A stretch of 64,000 nt of DNA from Cetorhinus maximus. Lineage: Eukaryota. A program made the position numbers and the translations under genes. The stretch covers positions 6,014,001 to 6,078,000 of the forward strand of contig NC_135914.1 of NCBI RefSeq assembly GCF_964194155.1. The letters are read 5' to 3'. The notes beneath the pieces were generated by a model. That model was not told the DNA's origin and ran no database searches. It saw only the letters and a program-made list of their open reading frames with translations. Positions 2,170 through 63,850 of the stretch are shown here, piece by piece; within the stretch, counting starts at the first letter, position 1; each line of letters opens with the position of its first letter.

Positions 2170-3927
2170 ACTGATCTTCCCTGTCCCGGGCTCACTGACC
2201 CTCCCTGTCCCTGTCCCGGGGTCACTGACCCTCCCTGTCCCTGTCCCAGGGTCACTGACCCTCCCTGTCCCTGTCCCGGGGTCACTGACCCTCCCTGTCC
2301 CTGTCCCGGGGTCACTGACCCTCCCTGTCCCGGGGTCACTGACCCTCCCTGTCCCGGGGTCACTGACCCTCACCGTCCCTGTCCTGGGCTCACTGACCCT
2401 CCCCGTCCCTGTCCCGGGGTCACTGACCCTCCCCGTCCCTGTCCCGGGGTCACTGACCCTCCCCGTCCCTGTCCCGGGGTCACTGACCCTCCCCGTCCCG
2501 GGGTCACTGACCCTCACCATCCCTGTCCCGGGCTCACTGACCCTCCCCGTCCCTGTCCCGGGCTCACTGACCCTCCCCGTCCCTGTCCCGGGGTCACTGA
2601 CCCTCCCTGTCCCTGTCCCGGAGTCACTGACCCTCCCTGTCCCGGGGTCACTGACCCTCACCGTCCCTGTCCCGGGCTCACTGACCCTCCCTGTCCCTGT
2701 CCCGGGGTCACTGACCCTCCCTGTCCCTGTCCCGGGGTCACTGACCCTCCCTGTCCCTGTCCCGGGGTCACTGACCCTCCCTGTCCCGGGGTCACTGACC
2801 CTCACCGTCCCTGTCCCGGGCTCACTGACCCTCCCCGTCCCTGTCCCGGGGTCACTGACTCTCCCCGTCCCTGTCCCGGGGTCACTGACCCTCCCCGTCC
2901 CTGTCCCGGGGTCACTGACCCTCCCCGTCCATGTCCCGGGGTCACTGACCCTCCCCGTCCATGTCCCGGGGTCACTGACCCTCCCTGTCCCGGGCTCACT
3001 GACCCTCCCTGTCCAGGGCTCACTGACCCTCCCTGTCCCGGGGTCACTGACCCTCCCCGTCCCTGTCCCGGGGTCACTGACCCTCCCCGTCCATGTCCCG
3101 GGGTCACTGACCCTCCCCGTCCATGTCCCGGGGTCACTGACCCTCCCTGTCCCGGGCTCACTGACCCTCCCTGTCCCAGGGTCACTGACCCTCCCTGTCC
3201 CGGGCTCACTGACCCTCCCTGTCCCGGGCTCACTGACCCTCCCTGTCCCTGTCCCGGGATCACTGACCCTCCCTGTCCCTGTCCCGGGGTCACTGACCCT
3301 CCCTGTCCCGGGGTCACTGACCCTCCCTGTCCCTGTCCCGGGGTCACTGACCCTCCCTGTCCCGGGGTCACTGACCCTCCCTGTCCCTGTCCCGGGGTCA
3401 CTGACCCTCCCCGTCCCTGTCCCGGGGTCACTGACCCTCCCTGTCCCTGTCCCGGGGTCACTGACCCTCCCCGTCCCTGTCCCGGGGTCACTGACCCTCC
3501 CTGTCCCTGTCCCGGGCTCACTGACCCTCCCTGTCCCGGGCTCACTGACCCTCCCTGTCCCTGTCCCGGGGTCACTGACCCTCCCCGTCCCTGTCCCGGG
3601 GTCACTGACCCTCCCTGTCCCGGGCTCACTGACCCTCCCTGTCCTGGGGTCACTGACCCTCCCTGTCCCTGTCCCGGGCTCACTGACCCTCCCTGTCCCG
3701 GGGTCACTGACCCTCCCTGTCCCGGGGTCACTGACCCTCACCGTCCCGGGGTCACTGACCCTCCCTGTCCCTGTCCCGGGGTCACTGACCCTCCCTGTCC
3801 CTGTCCCGGGGTCACTGACCCTCCCTGTCCCGGGGTCACTGACCCTCCCTGTCCCTGTCCCGGGGTCACTGACCCTCCCTGTCCCGGGGTCACTGACCCT
3901 CCCTGTCCCGGGGTCGGGGTCACTGAC
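2170..3927. repeat. 24/30-bp minisatellite (gtcccggggtcactgaccctccct[gtccct]) abutting the CREB3L4 donor
   Basis: About 1.75 kb of tandem units; produces the spurious 673/672-aa ORFs. Confidence 0.95.
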
Positions 3928-17521: not shown

Positions 17522-18095
17522 TTGTACAGAACCTTGGTGAGACTGCACCTGGAGTATTGTGTGCAGTTTAGGTCTCCTTACCTAAGGAAGGAAATACTGG
17601 CCATAGAGGGAGTGCAACAAAGGTTCACCAGACTAATCCCTGGGATGACAGGATTGTCCTATGAGGAGGGATTGAGGAGACTGGGCCTGTATTCTCTAGA
17701 GTTTAGCAGATTGAGAGGTGACCTCGTTGAGGTGTACAAAATTCTCACAGGGCTCGACAGGGTAGATGCAGGAAGGATGTTTCTCCTGGTTGGGGGTCTA
17801 GAACCAGGGGACACAGTCTCAGAATAAGAGGTCAGCCATTTAGGGTTGAGATGAGTAGGAATTTTTTCAGTCAGTGGGTGGTGAATCTTTGGAATTCTCT
17901 GCCCCAGAGAACTGTGGAGGCTCAGTCACCGAGTATGTTCAAAGCAGAGGCTGATAGATTTCTAGATACCAATGTCATCATGGGATAGGGGGATAGTGCG
18001 GGAGGATGGCCTTGAGGTGGAAGATTAGCCATGGTCTAGCTGGATGGCAGTGCAGGCTCGAGGGGCTGAATGGCCTGGGCCTGCTCCTGTGTTCC
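17522..18095 (+). mobile_element. CR1-type LINE 3' fragment
   Basis: YRTLVRLHLEYCVQFRSPYLRKEILAIEGVQQRFTRLIPG. Confidence 0.85.
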
Positions 18096-30509: not shown

Positions 30510-30554
30510 GTAACGGCAAACGGGACTGGCTCTGTCTGATCCCATTATAAACTC

Positions 30555-31350
30555 GGCACTGACCCTCCGACAGTGCGGCACTCCCTCAGTACTGACCCTC
30601 CGACAGTGCGGCGCTCCCTCAGTACTGACCCTCCGACAGTGCGGCGCTCCCTCAGTACTGACCCTCCGACAGTGCGGCGCTCCCTCAGTACTGACCCTCC
30701 GACAGTGCGGCGCTCCCTCAGTACTGACCCTCCGACAGTCCGGCGCTCCCTCAGTACTGACCCTCCGACAGTGCGGCGCTCCCTCAGCACTGACCCTCCG
30801 ACAGTGCGGCGCTCCCTCAGCACTGACCCTCCGACAGTGCGGCGCTCCCTCAGCACTGACCCTCCGACAGTGCGGCGCTCCCTCAGCACTGACCCTCCGA
30901 CAGTGCGGCACTCCCTCAGTACTGACCCTCCGACAGTGCGGCGCTCCCTCAGTACTGACCCTCCGACAGTGCGGCGCTCCCTCAGTACTGACCCTCCGAC
31001 AGTCCGGCGCTCCCTCAGCACTGACCCTCCGACAGTGCGGCACTCCCTCAGCACTGACCCTCCGACAGTGCGGCACTCCCTCAGTACTGACCCTCCGACA
31101 GTGCAGCACTCCCTCAGCACTGACCCTCCGACAGTGCGGCACTCCCTCAGTGCTGACCCTCCGACAGTGCGGCGCTCCCTCAGTACTGACCCTCCGACAG
31201 TGCGGCGCTCCCTCAGTACTGACCCTCCGACAGTGCGGCGCTACCTCAGTACTGACCCTCCGACAGTGCGGCGCTCCCTCAGCACTGACCCTCCGACAGT
31301 GCGGCGCTCCCTCAGTACTGACGCTCCGACAGCGCTGCATTCCCTCGGCA
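30555..31350 (-). repeat. 33-bp SINE-derived minisatellite in PMF1 intron 1
   Basis: About 23 units of the same family as 28649-29422. Confidence 0.93.
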
Positions 31351-31863
31351 CTGCCACTCTGTCCTGCCACTGGGACAGGATATATCCAGGGATGGTGGTG
31401 GTGGTGGTGTCATGGTCTTGGTCACACTGATGGTACCATACCTTACAGACTGTGTCAGGCTGCAGCTTGACTTGTCTGTGGGACAGTTCTTCCATTTCTG
31501 GCACAAGCCGTCATATGTTAGTAAAGAGGATGGTCCATCCGGTTTCATTCCTTATTGACTTTCCAGTGATTTTGATGCAGCTGAGTGGATCGCTAGCCCG
31601 TTTCAGATGGTAGTTAAATGTCATCCACACTGCTGTGTTTCTGGAGTCACATGTAGGCCAGACCAGGTAAGGACAGGATTCCCTCCCTAAAGGACATGAG
31701 TGAACCGGATGGGTTTTTATGACAGTTGACAATGGTTTCACGGTCATCATCAGACTTTTCATTCCAGATGTTTTTATTGAATTTAAATTCCGTCTGCCAT
31801 GACGGGTCTCAAACCTAGGACCCCCCTACTAGTCCAGTGGCAATACCATTACGCCGCCACCTC
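31350..31863 (-). mobile_element. Degenerate 5' end of the tRNA-headed LINE (head + start of APE domain)
   Basis: Reverse complement collinear with 58384-58990, including TTTIPGYILSQWQDR. Confidence 0.75.
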
Positions 31864-32538
31864 ACCTTGCCCTTTTCCTCCCTCTCACTTTCAGTCACTC
31901 AGACTCCGCTCAAATGTTCATGATCCATGTGGTTCTGAGGACGCCCCAGCGGTCAGTCAGACCTCACTGGACATGGGGTGATATAAATTAAACAATACTT
32001 AGCCTCTGGCGTCTACTGTCCGCGGGGACTTCCCTTTAAGCAGAGCCATCAAGTGAATCCTGCTTGTGACAGCAAGTTGCTGTGGATAAAAAACACTGAG
32101 ACTTTGGTTCACCGAAGCACTCATCTCCAGACTAGTAAAGTTTCCTACTTTCAGCTTATCCAGACTCAGTGATTTTTCTCCACAAGATTCAAACCCATGG
32201 CTTTTGGTCAGTGCTGAGTGAGTACCTCAGAGATGTTGCTGAATAACACTGGGCTGTTCAAACATTAATTCCTGGGTTATGGGCATCACTTACTAAGACA
32301 GGGAGCAGCTGTGTATCCTTCCTGAGCTCTTTAGTTGTCTCAGTATCCCAAATTGGATTGTTAATTGACCTTAGACACCCTGAGGTCAATTAAATGGTGA
32401 CTCCTGTTAATTCAGCTTCTACATTTTGAAATGACAGATTACTTTAATGTGCATATTTGAGTTTCTCACAGAAGATTGCCTAATGGGTGTGTTTTATTAA
32501 TTGTGGACATATTCTTGTGGTGTTCTTCCCTCCTACAG

Positions 32539-33554: not shown

Positions 33555-33921
33555 TTTTTTATTCCTTCATGGGTTGTGGGAATCACTGGCTAGGCCAGCA
33601 TTTATTGCCCATCCCTTTTTGACCTTGTTCAGAGGGCATTTAAGAGTCAACCGCATTGCTGTGGATCTGGATTCACATGTAGGCCAGACCAGGTAAGGAC
33701 AGCAGATTTCCTTCCCTAAAGGACATTAGTGAGTCAGACGGGTTTTTATGACAATCGGCAATAGTTTCGTGGTCATCATCAGACTTTTAATTCCAGATTT
33801 TTTTATTGAATTCAAATTTCACAATCTGCTATGGTGGGATTCAAACCCAGGGCCCTAGAGCATTTACCCTGGGTCTCTGGAATACCAGTCCAGTGACAAT
33901 ACTGCTATGCCACTGCCTCCC
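33555..33921 (-). mobile_element. tRNA-headed SINE sharing head and tail with the LINE at 58384-61622; inserted in an L2-like fragment (33280-34170)
   Basis: Box A-like TGGCATAGCAG (33902-33912 rc) and box B-like GGTTTGAATCC (33837-33847 rc); tail gggatgggcaataaatgctggcc as in the LINE 3' end. Confidence 0.8.
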
Positions 33922-34175
33922 AAGTTGGAGAAGCGCAGGGATCTCAGAGGGTTGAAGAGCTGGAGAAGATAGGGAGGGTTCTAGCTGATGGAGGAAGTTA
34001 CAGAGGTAGGGTTGCAGGGGCTGGAGGAGGTTCCAGAGGTACGGTTGCAGGGGCTGGAGGAGGTTACAGAGGTAGGGAGGGGTGTAGGTGTTGGAGGAGG
34101 TTACAGAGATAGGGAGGGTCATAGGGGCTGGAGGAGGTTACAGAGATAGGGAGGGTCATGGGGGCTGAAGGTGCT

Positions 34176-37100
34176 TTTTTATTCTTTCAAGGGACGTGGG
34201 CTTCACTGGCTGGGCCAGCATTTATTTCCCTTGAGGTAGTGGTGGTGATCTACCTTCTTGAACCCCTGCAGTCCATGTAGTGTAGGTACATCTACAGTGC
34301 TGTTAGGGAGTGAGTTCCAGGATTTTGACCCAGCGACAATGATGCAACGGCAATATACTTCCAAGTCAGGATGATGAGTGGCTTGGAGGGGAACTTCCAG
34401 ATGGTGGTGTTCCCATGCATCTGCTACCCTTATCCTTCTAGATGGTAGTGCTTGTGGAAGGTGCTGTCGAAGGAGCTTTGGTGAGTTTCTGCAGTGCATC
34501 TTGTAGATGGCACACATTGAAGCCCCTGTGCATTGGTGGTAGAGGGAATGAATGTTTGTGGAGGGGGTGTCATTCAAGCGGGCTGCTTTATCCTGCACGG
34601 TGTCAGGCTTCTTGAGCATTTTTCGGGGCAAGTGAAGAGTGTTCCATCACACTACTGACTTGTGCCTTGTAGATGGCAGATAGGCTTTGGAGAGTCAGGA
34701 AGCGAGCTACTCGCCACAGGATTCCCAGCCTCTGATCTGCTCTTGTAGCTACAGTATTTATATAGCTGGTACAGTTCAGTTTGTGGTTAATGATAACCCC
34801 TAATGTTGTTAGTGGGGAATTCAGTGATGGTATTGCCATTGAATATCAATGGGCGATGGTTAGATTCTTTTGTGTTGGAGATGGTCATTGCCTGACACTT
34901 GTGTGGTGCGAATGTTACTTGCCATTTGTCAGCCCAAGCCTGGATATTGTCCAGGTCTTGCTGCATTTGGACATGGACTGCTTCAGTATCTGAGGAGTCG
35001 TGGATGGTGCTGAACATTGTGCAATCATCAGCGAACATCCCCACTTCTGACGTTATGACGGAAGGAAGGTCATTGATGAAGCAGCTGAAGATGGTTGGGC
35101 CTAGGGCACTACCCTGAGGAACTCCTGCAGTGATGTCCTGGAGCTGAGATGCATGACATCCAACAACCACAGCCATCGTCCTTTGTGCTAGGTATGACTC
35201 CAACCAATGGAGAGTTTCCCCCCTGATTCCCGTTGACTCCAGTTTTGCTAGGGCTCCTTGATGCCACACTCAGTCAAATGCAGCATTGATGTCAAGGGCA
35301 TTCACTCTCACCTCACCTCAGGACCCTTAGTCCATGTTTGAACCAAGACTGTAATGAGGTCAGAAGCTGAGTGACCCTGGCAGAACCCAAGCAGGTTATT
35401 GCTAAGCAAGTGCTGCTTGATAGCACTGTTGATGACCCTTTCCATTATTTTACTGATGATCGAGAGTAGACTGATGGGGGTGTAATTAGCCGGGTTGGCT
35501 TTGTCCTGCTTTTTGTGGGCAGGACTTACCTGGGTAATTTTCCACATTGCTGGGTAGATGCCAGTGTTGTAGCTGTACTGGAACAGCTTGGCTAGGGATG
35601 CGGCTAGTTCTGGAGCACAAGTCTTCGTGTTATTGCCGGAATATTGTCAGGGCCCATAGCCTTTGTAGTATCCAGTGCTTCAATTGTTTCTTGATATCAC
35701 ATGGAGTGAATCAAATTGGCTGAATACTGGATAAAAGCAAAAAACTGCGGATGCTGGAAATCCAAAACAAAAACAAAAATACCTGGAAAAACTCAGCAGG
35801 TCTGGCAGCATCTGCGGAGAGGAACACAGTTAACGTTTCGAGTCCGAATGACCCTTCAACAGAACTAAGTAAAAATAGAAGAGAGGTGAAATATAAGCTG
35901 GTTTAAGGGGGGGTGGGACAAGTGGAGCTGGATAGAGGGCCATTGATAGGTGGAAATAACCAAAAAATCATAGACAAAAGGACAAAGAGGTGTTGAAGGT
36001 GGTGATATTATCTAAGGAATGTGCTAATTAAGGGTAGAAAGCAGGACAAGCAAGGTACAGATACCCCTAGTGGGGGTAGGGTGGGGGGAAGGGATCGAAA
36101 TAGGCTAAAAGGTAGAGATAAAACAATGGATGGAAATACACTTAAAAATAATGGAAATAGGTGGGAAAAGAAAAATCTATATAAATTATTGGAAAAGGTG
36201 GGGTGGGAATCGGAAAGGGTATGGGGATGGAGGAGAGAGTTCATGATTTAAAATTGTTGAACTCAATATTCAGTCCGGATTGGGAGCAACGAATGCAGTA
36301 GCCCTCAACCGTGTCCGGCCCATCTCCCATGCATCCAACCTCACACCTTTTTCTCCCTCCCAGAAACATGATAGGGTCCCCCTTGTCTTCACTTATCACC
36401 CCACCAGCCTCCGCATTCAAAGGATCATCCTCCGCCATTTCTGCCAACTCCAGCATGATGCCACCACCAAACACATCTTCCCTTCACCCACCCCCGGCGG
36501 CATTCCGCAGGGATCGTTCCCTCCGGGACAGCCTGGTCCACTCCTCCATCACCCCCTTCACCTCAACCCCCTCCCACGGCACCTTCCCATGCAACCGCAG
36601 AAGGTGCAACACCTGCCCCTTTACTTCCCCTCTCCTCACCGTCCAAGGGCCCAAACACTCCTTTCAAGTGAAGCAGCATTTCACTTGCACTTCCCTCAAT
36701 TTAGTCTACTGCATTCGTTGCTCCCAATGCGGTTTCCTTTACATTGGAGAGACCAAACGCAGACTGGGTGATCGCTTTACAGAACACCTTCGGTCGGTCC
36801 GCAAACATTACCCAGACCTCTCTGTCGCTTGCCATTTCAACATTCCACCCTGCTCTCATGCCCACATGTCCGTCCTCGGCTTGCTGCATTGTTCCAGTGA
36901 AGCTCAACGCAAACTGGAGGAACAGCACCTCATCTTCCGACTAGGCACTTTACAGCCTTCTGGACTGAATATTGAGTTCAACAATTTTAGATCATGAACT
37001 CTCTCCTCCATCCCCACCCCCTTTCCGATTTCCCCCCCCTTTTTTTCCAATTATTTATATAGATTTTTCTTTTCCCACCTACTTCCATTATTTTTAAATG

Positions 37101-37915
37101 TATTTCCATCCATTGTTTTATCTCTACCTTTTAGCCTATTTCGATCCCTTCCCCCCACCCTACCCCCACTAGGGGTATCTGTACCTTGCTTGTCCTGCTT
37201 TCTACCCTTAATTAGCACATTCCTTAGATAATATCACCACCTTCAACACCTCTTTGTCCTTTTGTCTGTGACATCTTTTGGTTATCTCCACCTATCACTG
37301 GCCCTCTATCCAGCTCTACTTGTCCCACCCCCCCTTAAACCAGCTTATATTTCACCTCTCTTCTATTTTTACTTAGTTCTGTTGAAGGGTCATTCGGACT
37401 CGAAACGTTAACTGTGCTCCTCTCCGCAGATGCTGCCAGACCTGCTGAGTTTTTCCAGGTATTTTTGTTTTTGTTTTGGCTGAATACTGGCATTTGTGAT
37501 GCTGGGGACCTCTGGAGGAGGCCGAGATGGATCGTCCACTCAGCACTTCTAGCTGAACAATGTTGTGAACGCTTCAGCCTTGCCTTTTGTGCTGATGTGC
37601 TGGGCTCTTCCATCATTGAGGATGGGGATATTTGTGGAGCCTCCTCCTCCAGTGAGTTGCTTAATTGTCCACCACTATTCATGACTGGATGTGGCAGGAC
37701 TGCAAAGCTTGGATCTGATTTGTTGAATGTGGAATCGCTTAGCTTTGTCTATCACTTGTTGCTTATGCTGTTTGGCATGCAACTGGCCCTGTATTGTAGC
37801 TTCACCAGGTTGACACCTCATTTTTAGGTATGCTGGGTGCTGCTTTTGGCATGCCCTCCTGCACTCTTCATTGAACAAGGGCTGATCCCCTGGCCTGATG
37901 GCAATGGTAGAGTCT
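34176..37915 (-). mobile_element. Non-LTR retrotransposon (CR1/L2 group) RT region, 5'-truncated, interrupted by a Penelope element
   Basis: WHQGALAKLES..GVPQGSALGPTIFSCFINDLP..MFADD; collinear with 59600-61620. Confidence 0.9.
35731..37478 (+). mobile_element. Penelope-like element (Neptune type), GIY-YIG endonuclease region flanked by inverted pLTRs
   Basis: ORF 36311-36997 CNRRRCNTC..VYCIRCSQCGFLYIGETKRRLGDRFTEH; ~520-bp inverted arms; duplication TTGGCTGAATACTGG at 35716-35730 and 37476-37490. Confidence 0.92.
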
Positions 37916-39214: not shown

Positions 39215-40190
39215 TGTGCAAGATGTAACGGGTGGTGTACCACAGGGATCAGTGCTGGGACCTCAACTGTTTACAATTTATATAAATGACTTAGATGAAG
39301 GGATGGATTGGATAGTTGCCACATTTGCTGATGACACAAAGATAGGAAGGAAAGTAAGTTGTGAAGAGGACATAAAGAGGCTACGAAAAATATAGATAGG
39401 TTAAGGGAGTGAGCAAAGATCTGGCAAATGGAGAATAATGTGTGAAAGTGTGAAATTGTCCGTTTTGGTAGGAAGAATACAAGAGAAGCTTATTATCTAA
39501 ATGGTGAGAGATTGCAGAGCTCTGAGATTTAGAGGGATCTGGGTATCTTAGTGCATGAATTGCAAAAGGTTAATATGCAGGTGCAGCAAGTAACTAGGAA
39601 AGCTAATAGAGTGTTATTGTTCATTGTGGGGGGGAATTGAATGCAAAAGTAGGGAGGTTATGCTTCACTTATACAGCGCATTGGTGAGACACATCTGGAA
39701 TACTGTGTACAGTATTGGTCACCTTATTTAAGGGAGGATGTGAATGCGTTGGAAGCAGTTCAGAGAAGGTTTACCAGACTAATACCTGGAATGGGTGGGT
39801 TGTCCTGTGAGGAAGGGTTGGACAGACTAGGCTTGTATCCACTGGAGTTTAGCAGAGTAAGAAGCGACTTGATTGAAACATGATTTTTCCTCTTGTGGGA
39901 GAATCTAGAACTAGGGGTCACTGTTTAAAAATAAGGGGTCGCCCATTTAAAACTGAGATGAGGAGAAATTTTTTTTGGAACTTCCTTCCTGAAAAAGCAT
40001 TTGAAGCCAGAACCTTTGAATATTTTTAAGGCAGAGGTGGTAGATTCTTGGTAAGAAAGGGGGTGATAGGTTATCGGGGGCAGGCGGGATGCAGATTTGA
40101 GGTTACTATCAAACCAACCATGATCTTATTGAATGGTGGAGCAGGCTCGAAAGGCTGAATGGCCTATTCCTGCTCCTTGTTCGTAATGAA
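39215..40190 (+). mobile_element. CR1-type LINE RT 3' part
   Basis: GVPQGSVLGPQLFTIYINDLDEG..FADDTKIG; same family as 825-2010. Confidence 0.88.
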
Positions 40191-48700: not shown

Positions 48701-49364
48701 GTGAGTCGGGGACTGCTCCTTTTTGTGAAACAATGGTGGGGGGGGGAACCTGTGAGGAGGGTGGTGGTCAAAAAAACTTCACTCCGTTTGCATTTCAAAA
48801 CAAAACCCTTCCTGCATAAAAATTGTCTTCACTTAAATTGGAGAGTTTAACACCAAGAAATTTCCAGTTCTTTCCCCGCTGCAGTAGTGAAAAGTTTGAT
48901 GCCTTGTTGCCAGATGCTGTGTAATCTCTTCATACAAATCTCTTCCCTGGATATCGAGGCTAACTGATTGTCCTTTTATTCATGTGAAATGTGTTGCTCA
49001 CTGATCGCAAGTTCCTGATAAGCAGTGGCTTCTCTCTGAGGTTTCTCTGTGTGGGGTTTCAACACATACCCAGCACATTTTGGAAGCAATCCGAATATTA
49101 CTCCCAAGTAGCCATGTCTGAAATGTGTAACTGGTCACAAAGGTTTGGAGAGTGAGTCACGGGCACTGCAGTGATTTAGGAAGGGCAGTGCTGTGGGCCC
49201 TAGTCCCTGCTCTGTGTGTGTAGATTCAGATTTTCCCATGTAGGCCGAGAGAGGATGGAGAGGTAAAGAGTCGGGGGGTTGAGTGGCATCAGATATAAAT
49301 CCGCGCAGGCCTCACTCAGTTTCTCAATGTCAAATTTAATACTTTATAAATACTCAACACTTCA

Positions 49365-49625
49365 GTGCAGTACTGAGGGAGTGCCGCCCTGTCGGAGGGT
49401 CAGTACCGAGGGAGCGCCACACTCGTAGGGTGAGTACTGAGGGAGAGCCACCCTGTCGGAGGGTCAGTACCGAGGGTGTGCCGCACTGTCGGAGGGTCAG
49501 TACCGAGGGAGCGCCGCACTGTCAGAGGGTCAGTACCGAGGGAGCGCTGCACTGTCGGAGGGTCAGTACCGAGGGAGCGCTGCACTGTCAGAGGGTCAGT
49601 ACCGAGGGAGCACCACACTGTCAGA
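49365..49625 (+). repeat. 33-bp SINE-derived minisatellite, short array
   Basis: cagtaccgagggagcgccgcactgtcggagggt units preceded by SINE-like cacttcagtgcagtactgaggg. Confidence 0.85.
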
Positions 49626-50489
49626 GTCTGTGTGGGACCCGTACCCCAGTGAGAGTCAGTGTGTGTGGAACCCGTACCCCAGTGAAAGCCAGTGTGTGTG
49701 AGACCTGTACCCCAGTGAGAGTCAGTGTGTGTGGACTCACAGAGACTTCCTGTGTGGGGAACTGTAACCCATTAAGAATCAGTCTCTGTGGGGGCTGTAC
49801 CCCAATATCAGCCCATCCCAGAAAGCAGGGAGTGAAGGGTCTATATCGAGGTGAAATTAAATTAAGTGTTTGGTGTATTTTTTTTACATGCAGATGACTC
49901 TCTCTTGTGTGGACGATCCCTGTCTAAAGTAGTAAAGCTGAAACCCTCTCCCCCAAAGATAAATGTGAATTCACTTTGTGTCTCTGCCCTATTGTAGCCT
50001 GCAGCAGACCCAGACAACTGGGGTTGGATGAACTCTGCACCAGCTCCTCTCCGTCTTTCTCCAAAGTGAATCCAGTGTCCTTTTAAGGCTTTAATGAAAT
50101 TATTTGGAGTGTCTGAGCCACAGAAGCAGCAGGAGTTCAGCGCTGCATTCACAGCCTGTCAGCCCGTACAATGGAACAGGCAGAGGGTTCAAGAGCACCC
50201 AGGTCCTATTCAACACAAGTCATTTGTCAACTTTAGCTCCTGTTTCACAGAGTCAAAGTCAGCAGTCAGCCATCACTGTGACACCCAAACAGATTGTATC
50301 TTGTGATTTTCTCCTCTTCACTCCTCAGGCCGCTGAGTTTTACTGGGATAGCATGTCACACTCGACATCTTCCCCTTGGATACCCCCAAGTATCAGCCTA
50401 CACAGTGAGTGGAGGCAATTGAACTGGAAAGCAGCACATCTGAGTTCAACACTGTTCTCATTAACAGCCAAGCAAATAGGCAGTGATAT

Positions 50490-58383: not shown

Positions 58384-61300
58384 TGGTGTCATGGTATTGT
58401 CACTGGACTGGTAATGCAGGGACCCAGGGTAATGCTCTGGGGACCCGGGTATGAATCCCACCAAGGCAGATGGTGGAATTTGAATTCAATAAAAATCTGT
58501 AATTAACAGTCTGATGATGACCATGAAACCATTGTCAATTGTTGTAAAAACCCATCTGGTTCACTAATGTCCCTTTAGGGAGGGAAACCTGTTGTCCTTA
58601 CCCGGTCTGGCCTACATGTGACTCCAGACCCACAGCAATGTGGTTGACTCTTAAATGCCCTCTGAAATGGCCTAGCAAAACACTCAGTTATAACAAACCG
58701 CTACAAAGTCATCAAAAAAGGAATGAAACCGGACGGACCACCCGTTATTGACCTAGGCACCGGAACCAACAACAGCAAATTCAGCCCTGTTGACCCTGCA
58801 GAGTCCTCCTTACTAACATCTGGGGGCAAGTGCCAAAATTGGGAGAGCTGTCTCACAGACTAGACAAGCAACAGCCTGACATAACCATACTCACAGAATC
58901 ATATCTTACAGATAATGTCCCAGACACCACCATCACCATCCCTGGGTATGTCCTATCCCACCGGCAGGACAGACCCAGCAGAGGTGGCAGCACAGTGGTA
59001 TACAGTCGGGAGAGAGTTGCCCTGGGAGTCCTCAACATTGACTCCGGACCCCATGAAGTCTCATGGTATCAGGTCAAACGGGCAAGGAAGCCTGCTGATT
59101 ACCACGTACCGCCCTCCCTCAGCTGATGAATCAGTGCTCCTCTATGTTGAACACCATTTGGAGGAAGCACTGAGCGTGGCAAGGGTGCACAATGTACTCT
59201 GGGTGGGGACTTCAATGTCTGTCACCAAGAGTGGCTCAGTAGCACCACCACACACCGAGCTGACCGACTCCTAAAGGACATAGCTGCTAGACTGGGTCTG
59301 CGGCAGGTGGTGAGGGAATCAAGAAAAGGGAAAAACATACTTGTCCTCATCCTCACCAACCTGCCTGCCGCAGATGCATCTGTCCATCACAGTGTCGGTA
59401 GGAGTGACCACTGCACAGTCGTTGTGGAGACGAAGTCCCGCCTTCACATTAAGGATACCCTCCACCGTGTTGTGTGGCATTACCACCGTGCTAAATGGGA
59501 TAGATTTCAAACAGATCTCGCAACTCAAGACTGGGCATCCATGAGGCGCTGTGGGCCATCAGCAGCAGCAGAATTTTAATCAACCACAATCTGTAACCTC
59601 ATATCCCCCACTCTTCATTGAACAGGGTTGATCCTCTGGCTTGGTGGCAATGGTAGAGTGCAGGAGGGGATGTCAGGAGCAGCACCAGGCATACCTGAGA
59701 ATGAGGTGTCAACCTGGTGAAGCTATAACACAGGACTACTTGCATCCAAACAGCATAAGCAGCAAGTGATAGACAGCTAAGCGATTCCGCAACCAACGGA
59801 TCAGATCTAAGCTCTGCAGTCCTCCCACACCAGTCGTGAATGGTGGTGGACAATTAAACAACTCACTGGAGGAGGAGGCACCACAAATATCCCCATCCTC
59901 AATGATGGAGGAGCCCCGCACATCAGTGCAAAGGATAAGGCTGAAGCATTTGCAGCCATCTTTAACCAGAAGTGCCGAGTGGATGATCCATCTCGGCCTC
60001 CTCCAGAGGTCTCCAGCATCACAGATGCCAGTCTTCAGCCAATTCGATTCACTCCATGTGATATCAAGAAATGGCTGAAGACATTGGATACTGCAAAGGC
60101 TATGGGCCCTGACAATATTCCGGCAATAGTACTGAAGACTTGTGCTCCAGAACTTGCCACACCCCTAGCCACACTTTCCTAGTACAGCTACAACACTGGC
60201 ATCTACCCGGCTATGTAGAAAATTGCCCAGATATGTCCTGTACACCTAAAACAGGGCAAATCCAACCCAGCCAATTACTGCCCCATCAGTCTACTCTCGA
60301 TTGTCAGCAAAGCGATGGAAGATGTCATCAACAGTGCTATCAAATGACACTTACCTGCTCACTGACGCTCAGTTTGGGTTCAGCTAGGGTCATTCAGCTT
60401 CTGACCTCATTACAGCCTTGGTTCAAACATGGACTAAAGAGCTGAACTCCTGAGGTGAGGTGAGAGTGACTGCCCTTGACATCAAGGCAGCATTTGACCG
60501 AGTGTGGCATCAAGGAGCCCTAGCAAAACTGGAGTCAATGGGAATCAGGAGGAAAACTCTCCGCTGGTTGGAGTCATACCTAGCACAAAGGAAGATGGTT
60601 GTGGTTGTTGGAGGTCAATCATCTCAGTTCCAGGACATCACTGCAGGAGTTCCTCAGGGTAGTATCCTCGACCCAACTATCTTCAGTTGCTTCATCAATG
60701 ACCTTCCTTCCATCATAAGGTCAGAAGTGGGGATGTTCGCTGATGACAATGTTCAGCACCATTCGTGACTCCTCTGATACTGAAGCAGTCCATGTCCAAA
60801 TGCAGCAAGACCTGGACAATATCCAGGCTTGGGCTGACAAGTGGCAAGTGACATTCACGCCACACAAGTGCCAAGCAATGATCATCTCCAACAAGAGAGA
60901 ATCTAACCATCGCCCCTTGACATTCAATGGCATTACCACCGCTGAATCCCCTGCAATCAACATCTTGGGTGTTACCATTGACCAGAGACTGAACTGGTCT
61001 AGCCGTATAAATACTGTGGCTACAAGAGGCTAGGAATCCTGCAACAAGTAGCTCATCTCCTGACTCCCCAAAGCCTGTCCACCATCTACAAGGCACAAGT
61101 CAAGGGTGTGATGGAATACTCTCTACTTGTCTGGCTAGTGCAGCTCCCACAACACTCAAGAAGTTCAACACCATCCAGGACAAAGCAGCCCGCTTGATTG
61201 GCACCACATCCACACATTCACTCCCTCCACCACCAACGCACAGTAGCGGCAGTGTGTACCATCTACAAGATGCACTGCAGGAATTCATCAAGGCTCCTTA

Positions 61301-61622
61301 GACAGCACCTTCCAAACCCACAACCACTACCATCTAGAAGGACAAGGGCAGCAGATACATGGGAACACCACCACCTGGAAGTTCACCTCCAAGTTACTCA
61401 TCATCCTGACTTGGAAGTATATTGGCCGTTCCTTCACTATCGCTGAGTCAAAATCCTGGAACTCCCTCCCTAACAGCACCATGGGTGTACCTACACCACA
61501 GGGACTGCAGCGGTTCAAGAAGGCGGCTCACCACCATCTTCTCAAGGGCAATAGGGATGGGCAATAAATGCTGGCCCAGCCAGCGAAGCCCACATCCTGT
61601 AAATTAACCCTTTAAAAAAAAA
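58384..61622 (+). mobile_element. Near full-length non-LTR retrotransposon (CR1/L2 group): tRNA-like head, APE endonuclease, RT, A-rich tail; frameshifted
   Basis: APE motifs PDITILTESYL, IPGYVLSHRQDRPSRGG, YRPP, GRSDH; RT motifs LDIKAAFDRVWH, GVPQGS, MFADD. Confidence 0.92.
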
Positions 61623-62220
61623 GACACCCCTCATGCTGGCCCTCCCCTCCATTCCTCATCCTGATGCCCCTCCCCCTTCACCACGCCTCCTCCCAGTCCC
61701 CTCGCCCCCTATGATCCCTCACTCTCTCTCTTTCCTGCATGTTGCCTAGCATTATGTATCATTTCTATCCATTTGTATATGTCTCTCTCCTTCTATTACC
61801 TCTCTCCTTTATCTCATCTTCCCTCACACTGTCTACTTCCCTTTCTCTGTATCTCTTTGATCTGTCTTAATTCCCATTCTGTCTTTCTATATCCCTTTCT
61901 ACCTCCCTCTTCATTTCCCCCTCTCTATCTGTTGCTAACCCTATTTCTTACTCTGTCCGTCTCTCTTTCTCTGTTCCATCTCTCCATTCCTCTATTCCAT
62001 CGGTTTATCTCCCTTTCTTTGTGTTACTATCTCTTCGTCTCTGTGTGTCTCCCTCTCTCCTTCCCATTCCCTCCATCTCTATCACTCACTCTATCTCCTT
62101 GACATTCTTCATCTCTTTCTGTGACTCTTCAAAACTCTCTGCCTGGTCTGAGACCTCTGCCAATTTGCTGAGTATGATCTAATAATGAACCTTCTTTTTC
62201 CCGTTGTTTTTCCGACCCAG

Positions 62221-62365
62221 CTCTGCCTCGATTTCAGACCCACCCGCAGTCTATGAAGGTGCAGCTGGGAGGTGTGGCCCGTTTTGAATGTCACATCTAT
62301 GGTGTTCCTGAAGCAACAATAACTTGGGAACTCAATCGTGTTCCTTTGAACATGGATGACGCAAG
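62221..62365 (+). CDS. IGDCC3-like exon 3, Ig domain 2 N-half LPRFQTHPQSMKVQLGGVARFECHIYGVPEATITWELNRVPLNMDDA
   Basis: acccag| and |gtgagt, 145 nt, phase 1 to 2; cf. IGDCC3 [26 protein letters not shown]. Confidence 0.92.
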
Positions 62366-62900
62366 GTGAGTCAAACATTTCCAACCAACCCGTAGGATTT
62401 TTATCTACTGAGTCAATGGCGTGTGGCAATGCGCAAAGCCAGGAGCTGTCCTCAGAAGAAATAGGAGTTACAGAGAGGGAAGCAGAGGTAACAGAACATC
62501 AGAGGTAACTCACTCCCCAAATCGTTCATCTTTGTATTTCCATTATAATTTTCTATGTCAACATTCATAATGGTCAGAGCCTATGTAAACTCGTAACGCT
62601 CTAATGACACCCTCCGACCAGAGATGATGCTGTAGCTCCTGAGAGTGGAGTAGCAGTGTGACAGTTTATATAGGCAGATTCCATTGCAATTGGAAATGCT
62701 AGTATTTCTAATGGAAATAGTTGAAAGGATGTACAAATGGCGGGGAGATTTTTAGTATACTGTACAGTGATAGGTGTATACATTATTCCTGTGAGACTCG
62801 GTGCCTCCTGTCACACCAGGGCATCAGCAGATCTGTAGAGTTATGGCTCCCACCTTCCCATCTTTAAATTTATATACATTTTTATTTATTTTCAAAAACT

Positions 62901-63850
62901 GTGTCAGCCGTGAGATAATGTGTAGCATTCTCGCCTGAATGAGATGGACCTGGGTTCAAGTTCCATTCCAGAGACTTGAGCACATAATCTACACCTAAAC
63001 TCCCAATGCAGTACTGAGGGAGTTCTGCACTATCAGGGGGTCAGAACTGAGGGAGGGCTGCACTGTCGGAGGGTCAGTGCTGAGGGAGTGCTGCACTGTC
63101 GGAGGGTCAGTACTGAGGGAGTGCTGCACTATCAGGGGGTCAGTACTGAGGGAGGGCTGCACTGTCGGAGGGTCAGTGCTGAAGGAGTGCTGCACTGTCG
63201 GAGGGTCAGTACTGAGGGAGTACTGCACTATCGGAGGGTCAGTACTGAGGGAGTGCTGCATTGTCGGAGGGTCAGTACTGAGGGAGAGCCGCACTGTCAG
63301 AGGGTCAGTGCTGAGGGAGTGCCGCACTGTCAGAGGGTCAGTACTGAGGGAGTGCCGCACTGTCGGAGGGTCAGTACTGAGGGAGCGCCGCACTGTCGGA
63401 GGGTCAGTACTGAGGGAGCGCCGCACTGTCGGAGGGTCAGTACTGAGGGAGCGCCGCACTGTCGGAGGGTCAGTGCTGAGGGAGCGCTGCACTGTCAGAG
63501 GGTCAGTACTGGGGAGTGCCGCACTATCGGAGGGTCAGTACTGAGGGAGCGCCGCACTGTCGGAGGGTCAGTACTGAGGGAGCGCTGCATGGTTGGTGGG
63601 CCGTCTTTCAGATGAGGCATTAAACTGAGGACCCGTCTTGCTGTAAAAGATCTAGCAGTCGCTATGTTGAAGAGTATTCTCTGGTGTCCTGGGTGAATTT
63701 TTACACCTCACCCAATATCTCAAACAAGTGATTATTTGATCATATTTGGCTGTAAGGTTTGTGAGAGTTTGCTGTGTGTAACTTGGTTCCTGCCGTGTTT
63801 TCTGCCCTTTAAAAGTATTTCATTGAATTGTAAAGCCCTTTACGATGTAA
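62901..63850 (+). mobile_element. Deu-type (SacSINE1-like) SINE with internal 33-bp tandem expansion (~63008-63590)
   Basis: tRNA-like head with gggttcaagttcc (62952), the array, then gccgtctttcagatgaggcattaaactgagg and the tail. Confidence 0.75.

Follow-up and report, generated by a model that had tools for sequence, protein, structure and literature searches.

The element at 58384-61622 of the window (the whole stretch of 64,000 nucleotides analysed here) is, by its sequence, a decayed copy of an abundant Zenon LINE of elasmobranchs, with a single ORF and a length of about 3.28 kb. We think it fairly probable that it is the dead remnant of a single-ORF Zenon whose box A/box B head would drive transcription by Pol III from end to end, whose translation would start at a non-AUG codon, and which would give rise to a SINE by internal deletion.

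Textbooks assign coding LINEs to Pol II and short non-coding SINEs to Pol III. If our reading is true, a coding LINE of 3.3 kb that carries a tRNA promoter and has spread among sharks and rays breaks this split. Pol III would then be able to produce a long retrotransposon RNA that is translated, and a LINE could turn into a SINE in one step. Two questions become testable with reporters: the translation of a natural Pol III transcript and the initiation of a LINE ORF without AUG. A search of the open literature returned no report of a Pol III-transcribed or tRNA-headed LINE. The family itself is known. Its tRNA head, avoidance of T-runs, missing AUG, and derivation of a SINE were not found described in the open literature and appear to be unpublished.

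Structure and state of the window copy

The window copy is 91.9% identical to the family majority sequence (121 alignments, 92 loci). It is dead, as it carries 8 in-frame stops, many indels, and a micro-inversion of about 52 bp (Table 1). The sequence-only reading of this DNA had described box A-like and box B-like motifs in a head followed by an APE endonuclease and an RT, with no ORF1 between them. Both motifs were found, and the domains lie directly 3' of the head. Pfam matched RVT_1 at 60454-60765 of the window and Exo_endo_phos on a sister copy; the window copy's own short endonuclease piece scored with no Pfam family. At the level of the family, the APE endonuclease and RT of a Zenon LINE (CR1 group) are recognised by Pfam on natural copies and by catalytic motifs in the 969-aa frame. 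Downstream of the element, a frame at 62178-62369 (+) looks like an exon: an immunoglobulin I-set domain is encoded there (Pfam E 6e-9), with a GT donor behind it. The LINE is likely to be intronic, or close to an intron, in an Ig-domain gene that runs on the same strand.

Table 1. Features of the Zenon copies in the window
Feature	Position	Strand	Basis
Elasmobranch Zenon LINE, inactivated and almost full-length, lacking the first 10 nt	58384..61622	+	By-eye match of family 5' 400 nt to CarCar_Zenon-1
tRNA-derived head: Thr-like anticodon arm, extra variable-region hairpin; not a functional tRNA	58384..58468	+	ARAGORN, host-tRNA alignment, fold
Box A (family position 11), degenerate in the window copy and canonical in the family majority	58384..58394	+	
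Box B, one mismatch in the window copy, canonical in the family majority	58448..58458	+	
5' body; last ~150 nt near-invariant in five published shark/ray consensuses	58469..58699	+	Read by eye
Candidate region for a non-AUG start: conserved hairpin with 7-nt anticodon-like loop, followed after 12 nt by in-frame GCT(A)	58662..58703	+	
Single ORF: basic leader, APE endonuclease (from ~58800), RT; 8 stops and many indels	58700..61552	+	Pileup frame, motifs, Pfam
Micro-inversion (~52 bp) found in the window copy specifically	59609..59660	-	
3' tail common to LINE and SINE: predicted stem-loop, AATAAA, short A-run	61543..61622	+	
More diverged 5' fragment, head to early endonuclease, stopping at a 33-bp tandem array	31358..31866	-	
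SINE copy in which 2-292 of the family is fused to 3217-3289	33555..33921	-	
Fourth family copy, 5'-truncated (family position 1251 onward) and interrupted by a 1.7-kb insertion	34175..37913	-	

The family is catalogued as Zenon-1

The sequence-only reading could not tell whether the family was already catalogued. By its sequence it is elasmobranch Zenon-1: its first 400 nt match CarCar_Zenon-1 (3288 nt) almost letter for letter in a by-eye comparison of these 400 nt alone (PMC13343379). An identification as Daphne or Kiri, from motifs, was dropped in favour of Zenon. The elasmobranch consensuses comprise CarCar_, ScyCan_, RhiTyp_, and HypSab_Zenon-1 and SquAca_Zenon-1 to -3 (Stuart et al. 2026, PMC13343379). 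The five Zenon-1 consensuses span 3.24-3.31 kb with a single APE+RT ORF, and the Zenon of elasmobranchs, coelacanth, and hagfish all lack ORF1 and have poly(A) tails (PMC13343379). A-rich 3' ends are also found among the 116 ends listed for the shark family, in keeping with Zenon. Since the absence of ORF1 is a trait of all Zenon elements described there, it was not caused by the head. The term 'tRNA' is absent from the main text and supplement of PMC13343379, as is 'polymerase III' from its main text. In the accessible parts of that source we saw no sequence difference between Zenon-1 and the shark family, and the head, the T-run avoidance, the missing AUG, and the SINE derivative are unremarked.

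Read by eye over their first 400 nt, the consensuses of all five elasmobranch species have the head with recognisable boxes and no TTTT, whereas two hagfish and one coelacanth Zenon have no such head and contain TTTT (PMC13343379). The boxes persist across the sharks and the ray while the spacer diverges. As the head is present in the five elasmobranchs and absent from these hagfish and coelacanth Zenon and from Persaeus, a lepidopteran element that bears the 5' end of Zenon (see below), it was most likely gained in the shark-ray lineage, the lack of ORF1 being ancestral.

In a quick RT tree of 70 rows, in which no named Zenon reference was included, the element was apart from the shark CR1 control (clade 99) and among mostly unnamed relatives (86-91). 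Among named protein homologues, the nearest belongs to the shark Heptranchias and has 84% identity to the majority protein. A Heptranchias aldo-keto reductase gene model (P0003) contains about 215 aa of the LINE ORF, which is probably a mis-annotation and possibly an exonisation. The viral sequence collection yielded no relative, and Rfam gave no tRNA, ribozyme, or IRES match in 10 metagenome relatives. One metagenome relative (L161, 37.5% identity) has about 1 kb of upstream sequence (1-1100) with neither ORF1 nor tRNA head. Its first 200 nt are reminiscent of the 5' ribozyme-like leaders of RTE elements, with no Rfam match there.

The head is the fixed 5' end of the LINE

A search of the 3.99-Gb genome with the head-endonuclease junction returned 6063 first-look candidates, 40 of which were scored and showed 88-91% identity apart from the window itself. 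At 30 junction loci, similarity does not extend 5' of the head; scattered unrelated repeats occupy the flanks, with no common upstream sequence. As a junction query picks head-bearing copies, the search was repeated with endonuclease DNA alone. The 29 copies selected this way besides the window comprise 15 that extend to the head, 6 that stop in the 5' UTR, and 8 that stop in the ORF. Some small-contig matches are possibly duplicates, as L052 and L055 have a common deletion. Comparison of 13 of the 14 truncated copies revealed no adjacent flank sequence in common and no alternative 5' end. Nearly half of the distinct head+ORF copies (25/53) start at positions 1-4, 10 nt 5' of box A. Full-length copies run from head to A-tail over about 3.25 kb, with head and endonuclease collinear and contiguous and one tail per element.

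These results bear on several expectations of the sequence-only reading. Full-length copies were proposed to start at the tRNA-like head, as the 25 copies do. Two observations had been named as fatal to it, a conventional ORF1 upstream of the head and head-APE junctions differing among copies; full-length copies do not extend upstream into ORF1, and the junction is the same across copies. Its expectation of target-site duplications (TSDs) enclosing head, ORF, and tail was not borne out, since TSDs of at least 6 nt were found in 4/19 LINE copies against 10.5% in shuffled pairs, which is no enrichment. The SINE copies (2/17 at this length) show no enrichment over shuffled pairs either. As TSDs are not enriched, the boundaries of the element rest on common ends and unrelated flanks.

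The head-ORF continuity could also arise by nesting, if LINEs had landed, by chance or by targeting, in or behind SINE copies. Head-bearing SINEs are indeed abundant (2097 first-look candidates), and nested copies occur. We nevertheless reject this reading as hardly credible: each full-length copy has the one collinear continuity and a single tail, the endonuclease-selected copies have no alternative 5' end, and the consensuses of five species begin with the head. As a separate observation, internal deletions are very common among the copies, with 57 junctions not of the SINE type, nearly all with different breakpoints and 15 of them with an overlap of at least 3 nt.

The tRNA-derived head

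ARAGORN called a tRNA-Thr at the head in 2 of 14 family loci. When the head was compared with 22 host tRNA sequences of five types, Thr came best (z 5.8), followed by Cys (z 4.6). The Thr donor is tentative, since Ser and Leu are absent from the compared set. Rfam gave no tRNA match on family copies, the acceptor stem is unpaired in the predicted fold, and the head does not have the properties of a functional tRNA gene. Box A and box B are canonical in the family majority. Among metagenome relatives, many of which lack 5' ends, ARAGORN found no tRNA in 41 loci, and a box regular expression with nhmmer found nothing convincing in 80. By eye, the family bears no likeness to two bivalve MetaSINE alignments, MetaSINEs being defined by a Meta-domain directly behind a tRNA-Thr-like head.

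Depletion of T-runs and the transcribing polymerase

An element transcribed by Pol III has to keep its sense strand free of T-runs. The 3.29-kb majority has on this strand no TTTT and 6 TTT, against 15 AAAA and 46 AAA, and family copies carry 0.21 TTTT per kb. The ORF has 4 TTT runs where synonymous codon shuffling predicts 12.3 (0/5000 shuffles as low), while its A, C, and G runs match the shuffled expectation. The depletion is specific to T and to the sense strand, and is present in all three thirds of the ORF. Interrupted T-run terminators number 0 here.

As a control, we took a younger CR1 family of the same genome (L266-L290), with copies about 96% identical to their majority, an open frame of 983 aa, and a short tandem-repeat tail. 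TTTT occurs 5 times in this CR1 family, and its density in the copies is 2.5 per kb compared with 0.21 in the Zenon family. Among the metagenome relatives with long matches (39/80), the observed/expected ratio of TTT is 0.62-1.68 compared with 0.23 in the shark family, these controls being distant (24-41% identity) and mostly T-richer.

The tRNA-type head and the lack of terminating T-runs suggest that this protein-coding element is likely made by Pol III. On these sequence features we favour, with moderate confidence, a Zenon LINE that is transcribed by Pol III and translated without AUG. Several results count against Pol III. The control CR1 is mildly TTT-poor too (28 versus 34, P 0.04). The conservation of boxes A and B is 0.90 and 0.95 compared with 0.94 elsewhere, among neutrally decaying copies. 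The absence of TTTT is not significant alone (P 0.09-0.23 in three nulls). The T-run signal rests on TTT and TT, and TTT itself is no terminator. AATAAA is absent from the ORF and occurs 4 times in the control, as Pol II would favour. The length of SINEs has been tied to the weak processivity of Pol III (Kojima 2024).

Some of these observations lend weight to a rival in which the head is fixed in the LINE and the coding RNA comes from Pol II, starting in the conserved body or reading through from host promoters. The boxes would then serve the SINE only or be hitch-hikers, and the T-poverty would have another cause. Besides the ORF devoid of AATAAA and the lack of significance of the TTTT count taken alone, this rival has on its side that LINEs are described as Pol II transcripts (Kojima 2018, PMC5786205; Kojima 2024) and that in the published consensuses the body seems, by eye, better conserved across species than the tRNA part. 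It fits less well with the start of 25/53 copies at positions 1-4, 10 nt 5' of box A, with a depletion that is T-specific, sense-strand, and spread over the three thirds of the ORF, and with the persistence of the boxes across sharks and ray despite spacer divergence. We regard it as possible but doubtful.

Under the preferred reading of Pol III transcription, a Zenon ancestor already without ORF1 would have acquired the head among sharks and rays, template switching of the RT being the probable route. TFIIIC and Pol III would start 10 nt 5' of box A and read through the 3.3 kb of an element without terminators. Translation of the uncapped RNA would begin at the conserved GCT or close to it, preceded by a structured leader that is itself conserved. 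The encoded protein would bind the 3' stem-loop and insert the element by target-primed reverse transcription, and any deletion keeping both ends would at once be a complete SINE.

Translation start and leader

The open frame of the pileup has 969 aa, and its first in-frame Met is residue 285, past the endonuclease motifs. A stop lies three codons upstream of the conserved GCT. The ORF opens with a basic leader, and homologues have a similar one. No intact copy was found among those examined, the longest natural ORF being 594 aa. In the five published species, the ~150 nt 5' of the GCT are near-invariant by eye, and in the whale shark the spacer before GCTA differs by one base (PMC13343379). 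The spacing from GCT to the basic leader is in frame in 4/5 species. The exception is Squalus, where the Squalus-1 consensus has a conserved ATG, and not the basic leader, in frame with GCT, which counts against a start at GCT. The commonest recurrent indel is a 3-nt deletion just 3' of the GCT (14/94 copies); its value as an argument is weakened by recurrent UTR deletions of 12 and 15 nt, also multiples of three. Taken from the sequences, translation probably starts at or near the GCT, without AUG. Alternatively, translation may begin at a conserved ATG of the +1 frame and involve a frameshift.

A hairpin lies 12 nt upstream of GCTA, with a 7-nt loop complementary to GCTA. The candidate pairing would involve 3-4 bp, and its two partners are invariant in the five published species, with no covariation. 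One upstream leader helix, read by eye, shows one compensatory, two compatible, and one disruptive change. On family copies, Rfam gave no match to IRES models at E cut-offs of 2 and 10, nor to ribozymes. The leader contains a motif that recalls a hammerhead but, on inspection by eye, has no stem II and was therefore dismissed.

The candidate arrangement resembles the type 6 IRES of dicistrovirus intergenic regions (IGR), a structured leader of 130-200 nt that ends beside a non-AUG codon, mostly GCU, and has an anticodon-like pseudoknot (PMC10275262, PMC10516663, PMC12221177, PMC3894237). It differs from the type 6 IRES described in the accessible parts of these sources in that Rfam gives no match, the candidate pairing is limited to 3-4 bp, and neither a triple-pseudoknot model nor clear covariation was obtained. 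The likeness is a lead and not membership. The presence of IGR-type elements in LINEs has been raised as a hypothesis (PMC3894237). By analogy, one may picture a retrotransposon independent of both Pol II and cap, with an uncapped 3.3-kb Pol III RNA and a leader acting as a dicistrovirus-type factorless IRES, whose loop would pair with GCU to set the frame, two-ended deletions being ready SINEs. We consider this full version quite improbable; if true, it would provide an element like a type 6 IRES in a cellular genome.

The SINE derivative and the order of origin

The SINE consists of the first 292 nt and the last ~70 nt of the LINE, its tail beginning inside the last ORF codons, with 2097 first-look candidates in the genome. 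The head of its majority differs from the LINE head by 10 mismatches in 292, or about 97% identity. It has several defining features of a tRNA-derived SINE: a tRNA-derived head with boxes A and B, the tail of a partner LINE, multiple copies, and unrelated flanks. Judging from these sequences, the SINE in the window is likely the same LINE with its coding middle deleted. We found 89 deletion junctions. The main SINE junction makes up 30/89, mostly because the query selects for it. Short head-tail junctions are of at least six types (the main one and five others), besides a range of longer deletions. The simplest reading of so many different junctions is repeated deletion from the headed LINE.

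The sequence-only reading had seen here a self-contained LINE/SINE pair. The part that makes the SINE an internal-deletion product is supported by the 97% identity of the heads; the head may first have joined either the full LINE or a deleted derivative. In a SINE-first order, compatible with either polymerase, the tRNA head would have joined a two-ended, non-autonomous Zenon derivative, and the LINE would have taken it later by template switching in the common 5' UTR. Such head addition onto bipartite LINE derivatives has been proposed (Kojima 2018, PMC5786205), Zenon of Lepidoptera yields bipartite derivatives (PMC6740152), and greater divergence (70-82%) is seen in some SINE-like copies whose junctions differ from the main one. 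We think this order unlikely, as the main SINE and today's LINE head agree at 97% and the variety of short junctions and longer deletions looks like repeated deletion from a headed LINE.

Concerning the tail, its alignment fold shows a double change in 1/10 pairs. At the 3' ends, one to six T precede the A-run (e.g., L032, L037, L042, L112), and four or more T followed by A are found in 16/65 LINE and 9/41 SINE ends. These ends may be terminator relics, but they do not correlate with divergence (rho 0.25, P 0.14, n 35), and A-to-T slippage explains them equally well.

Comparison with known elements

The closest parallel in mode of formation is Persaeus, a SIDE of Zenon in Lepidoptera, where the two ends of a LINE are likewise joined by internal deletion, recurrently (PMC6740152). 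As described there, Persaeus lacks both homology to tRNA and a Pol III promoter, whereas the shark parent LINE itself carries the tRNA head. The shark SINE resembles a SIDE of the Persaeus type in consisting of two LINE ends and departs from it in having a small-RNA head. Bov-tA, CoeSINE4, and SINE2-1_ACar also combine a tRNA head with a 5' and a 3' part of a LINE (Kojima 2018, PMC5786205). In Bov-tA-type SINEs, as presented there, the head is on the non-autonomous element alone and the partner RTE or Vingi LINE is without it.

Among retrotransposons other than SINEs, TRIMp3 elements (Cassandra, Helenus, Ajax) have a Pol III promoter derived from a small RNA, as here, but they are non-coding LTR elements of 0.3-1.3 kb, while the shark element is non-LTR, 3.3 kb long, and protein-coding (PMC10886601). 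Sharks are known to harbour tRNA-headed SINEs with a tail shared with a LINE, as in HE1/HER1, SacSINE1, and CmiSINE/L2-2_CM (PMC3747384; PMC5499810). As described in these sources, the HE1, SacSINE1, and CmiSINE pairs are set apart by their CR1 or L2 partners, by sharing the tail alone, and by their V, Deu, or CORE bodies.

Other copies and repeats in the window

The sequence-only reading had reported a second copy with the same head-to-APE junction and a third with only the head and the LINE tail. Both stand (Table 1): the former keeps the continuity from head to endonuclease seen in the main copy, with two internal deletions, and the latter has the composition announced. The possibility that the former represents an older sister family was abandoned, as a search with it returned the same family at 80-94%. 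The insertion in the fourth Zenon copy (35731-37475) has inverted repeats of 518 bp at 35762-36279 and 36959-37479, 96% identical, and is possibly a DNA transposon. The 33-bp tandem repeat that adjoins the broken end of the 31358-31866 copy occurs at three sites of the window (30552-31361, 49363-49626, and 63004-63600). A dispersed repeat is present in three diverged copies (66-75%) at 843-1800, 39217-40170, and 17571-18076.
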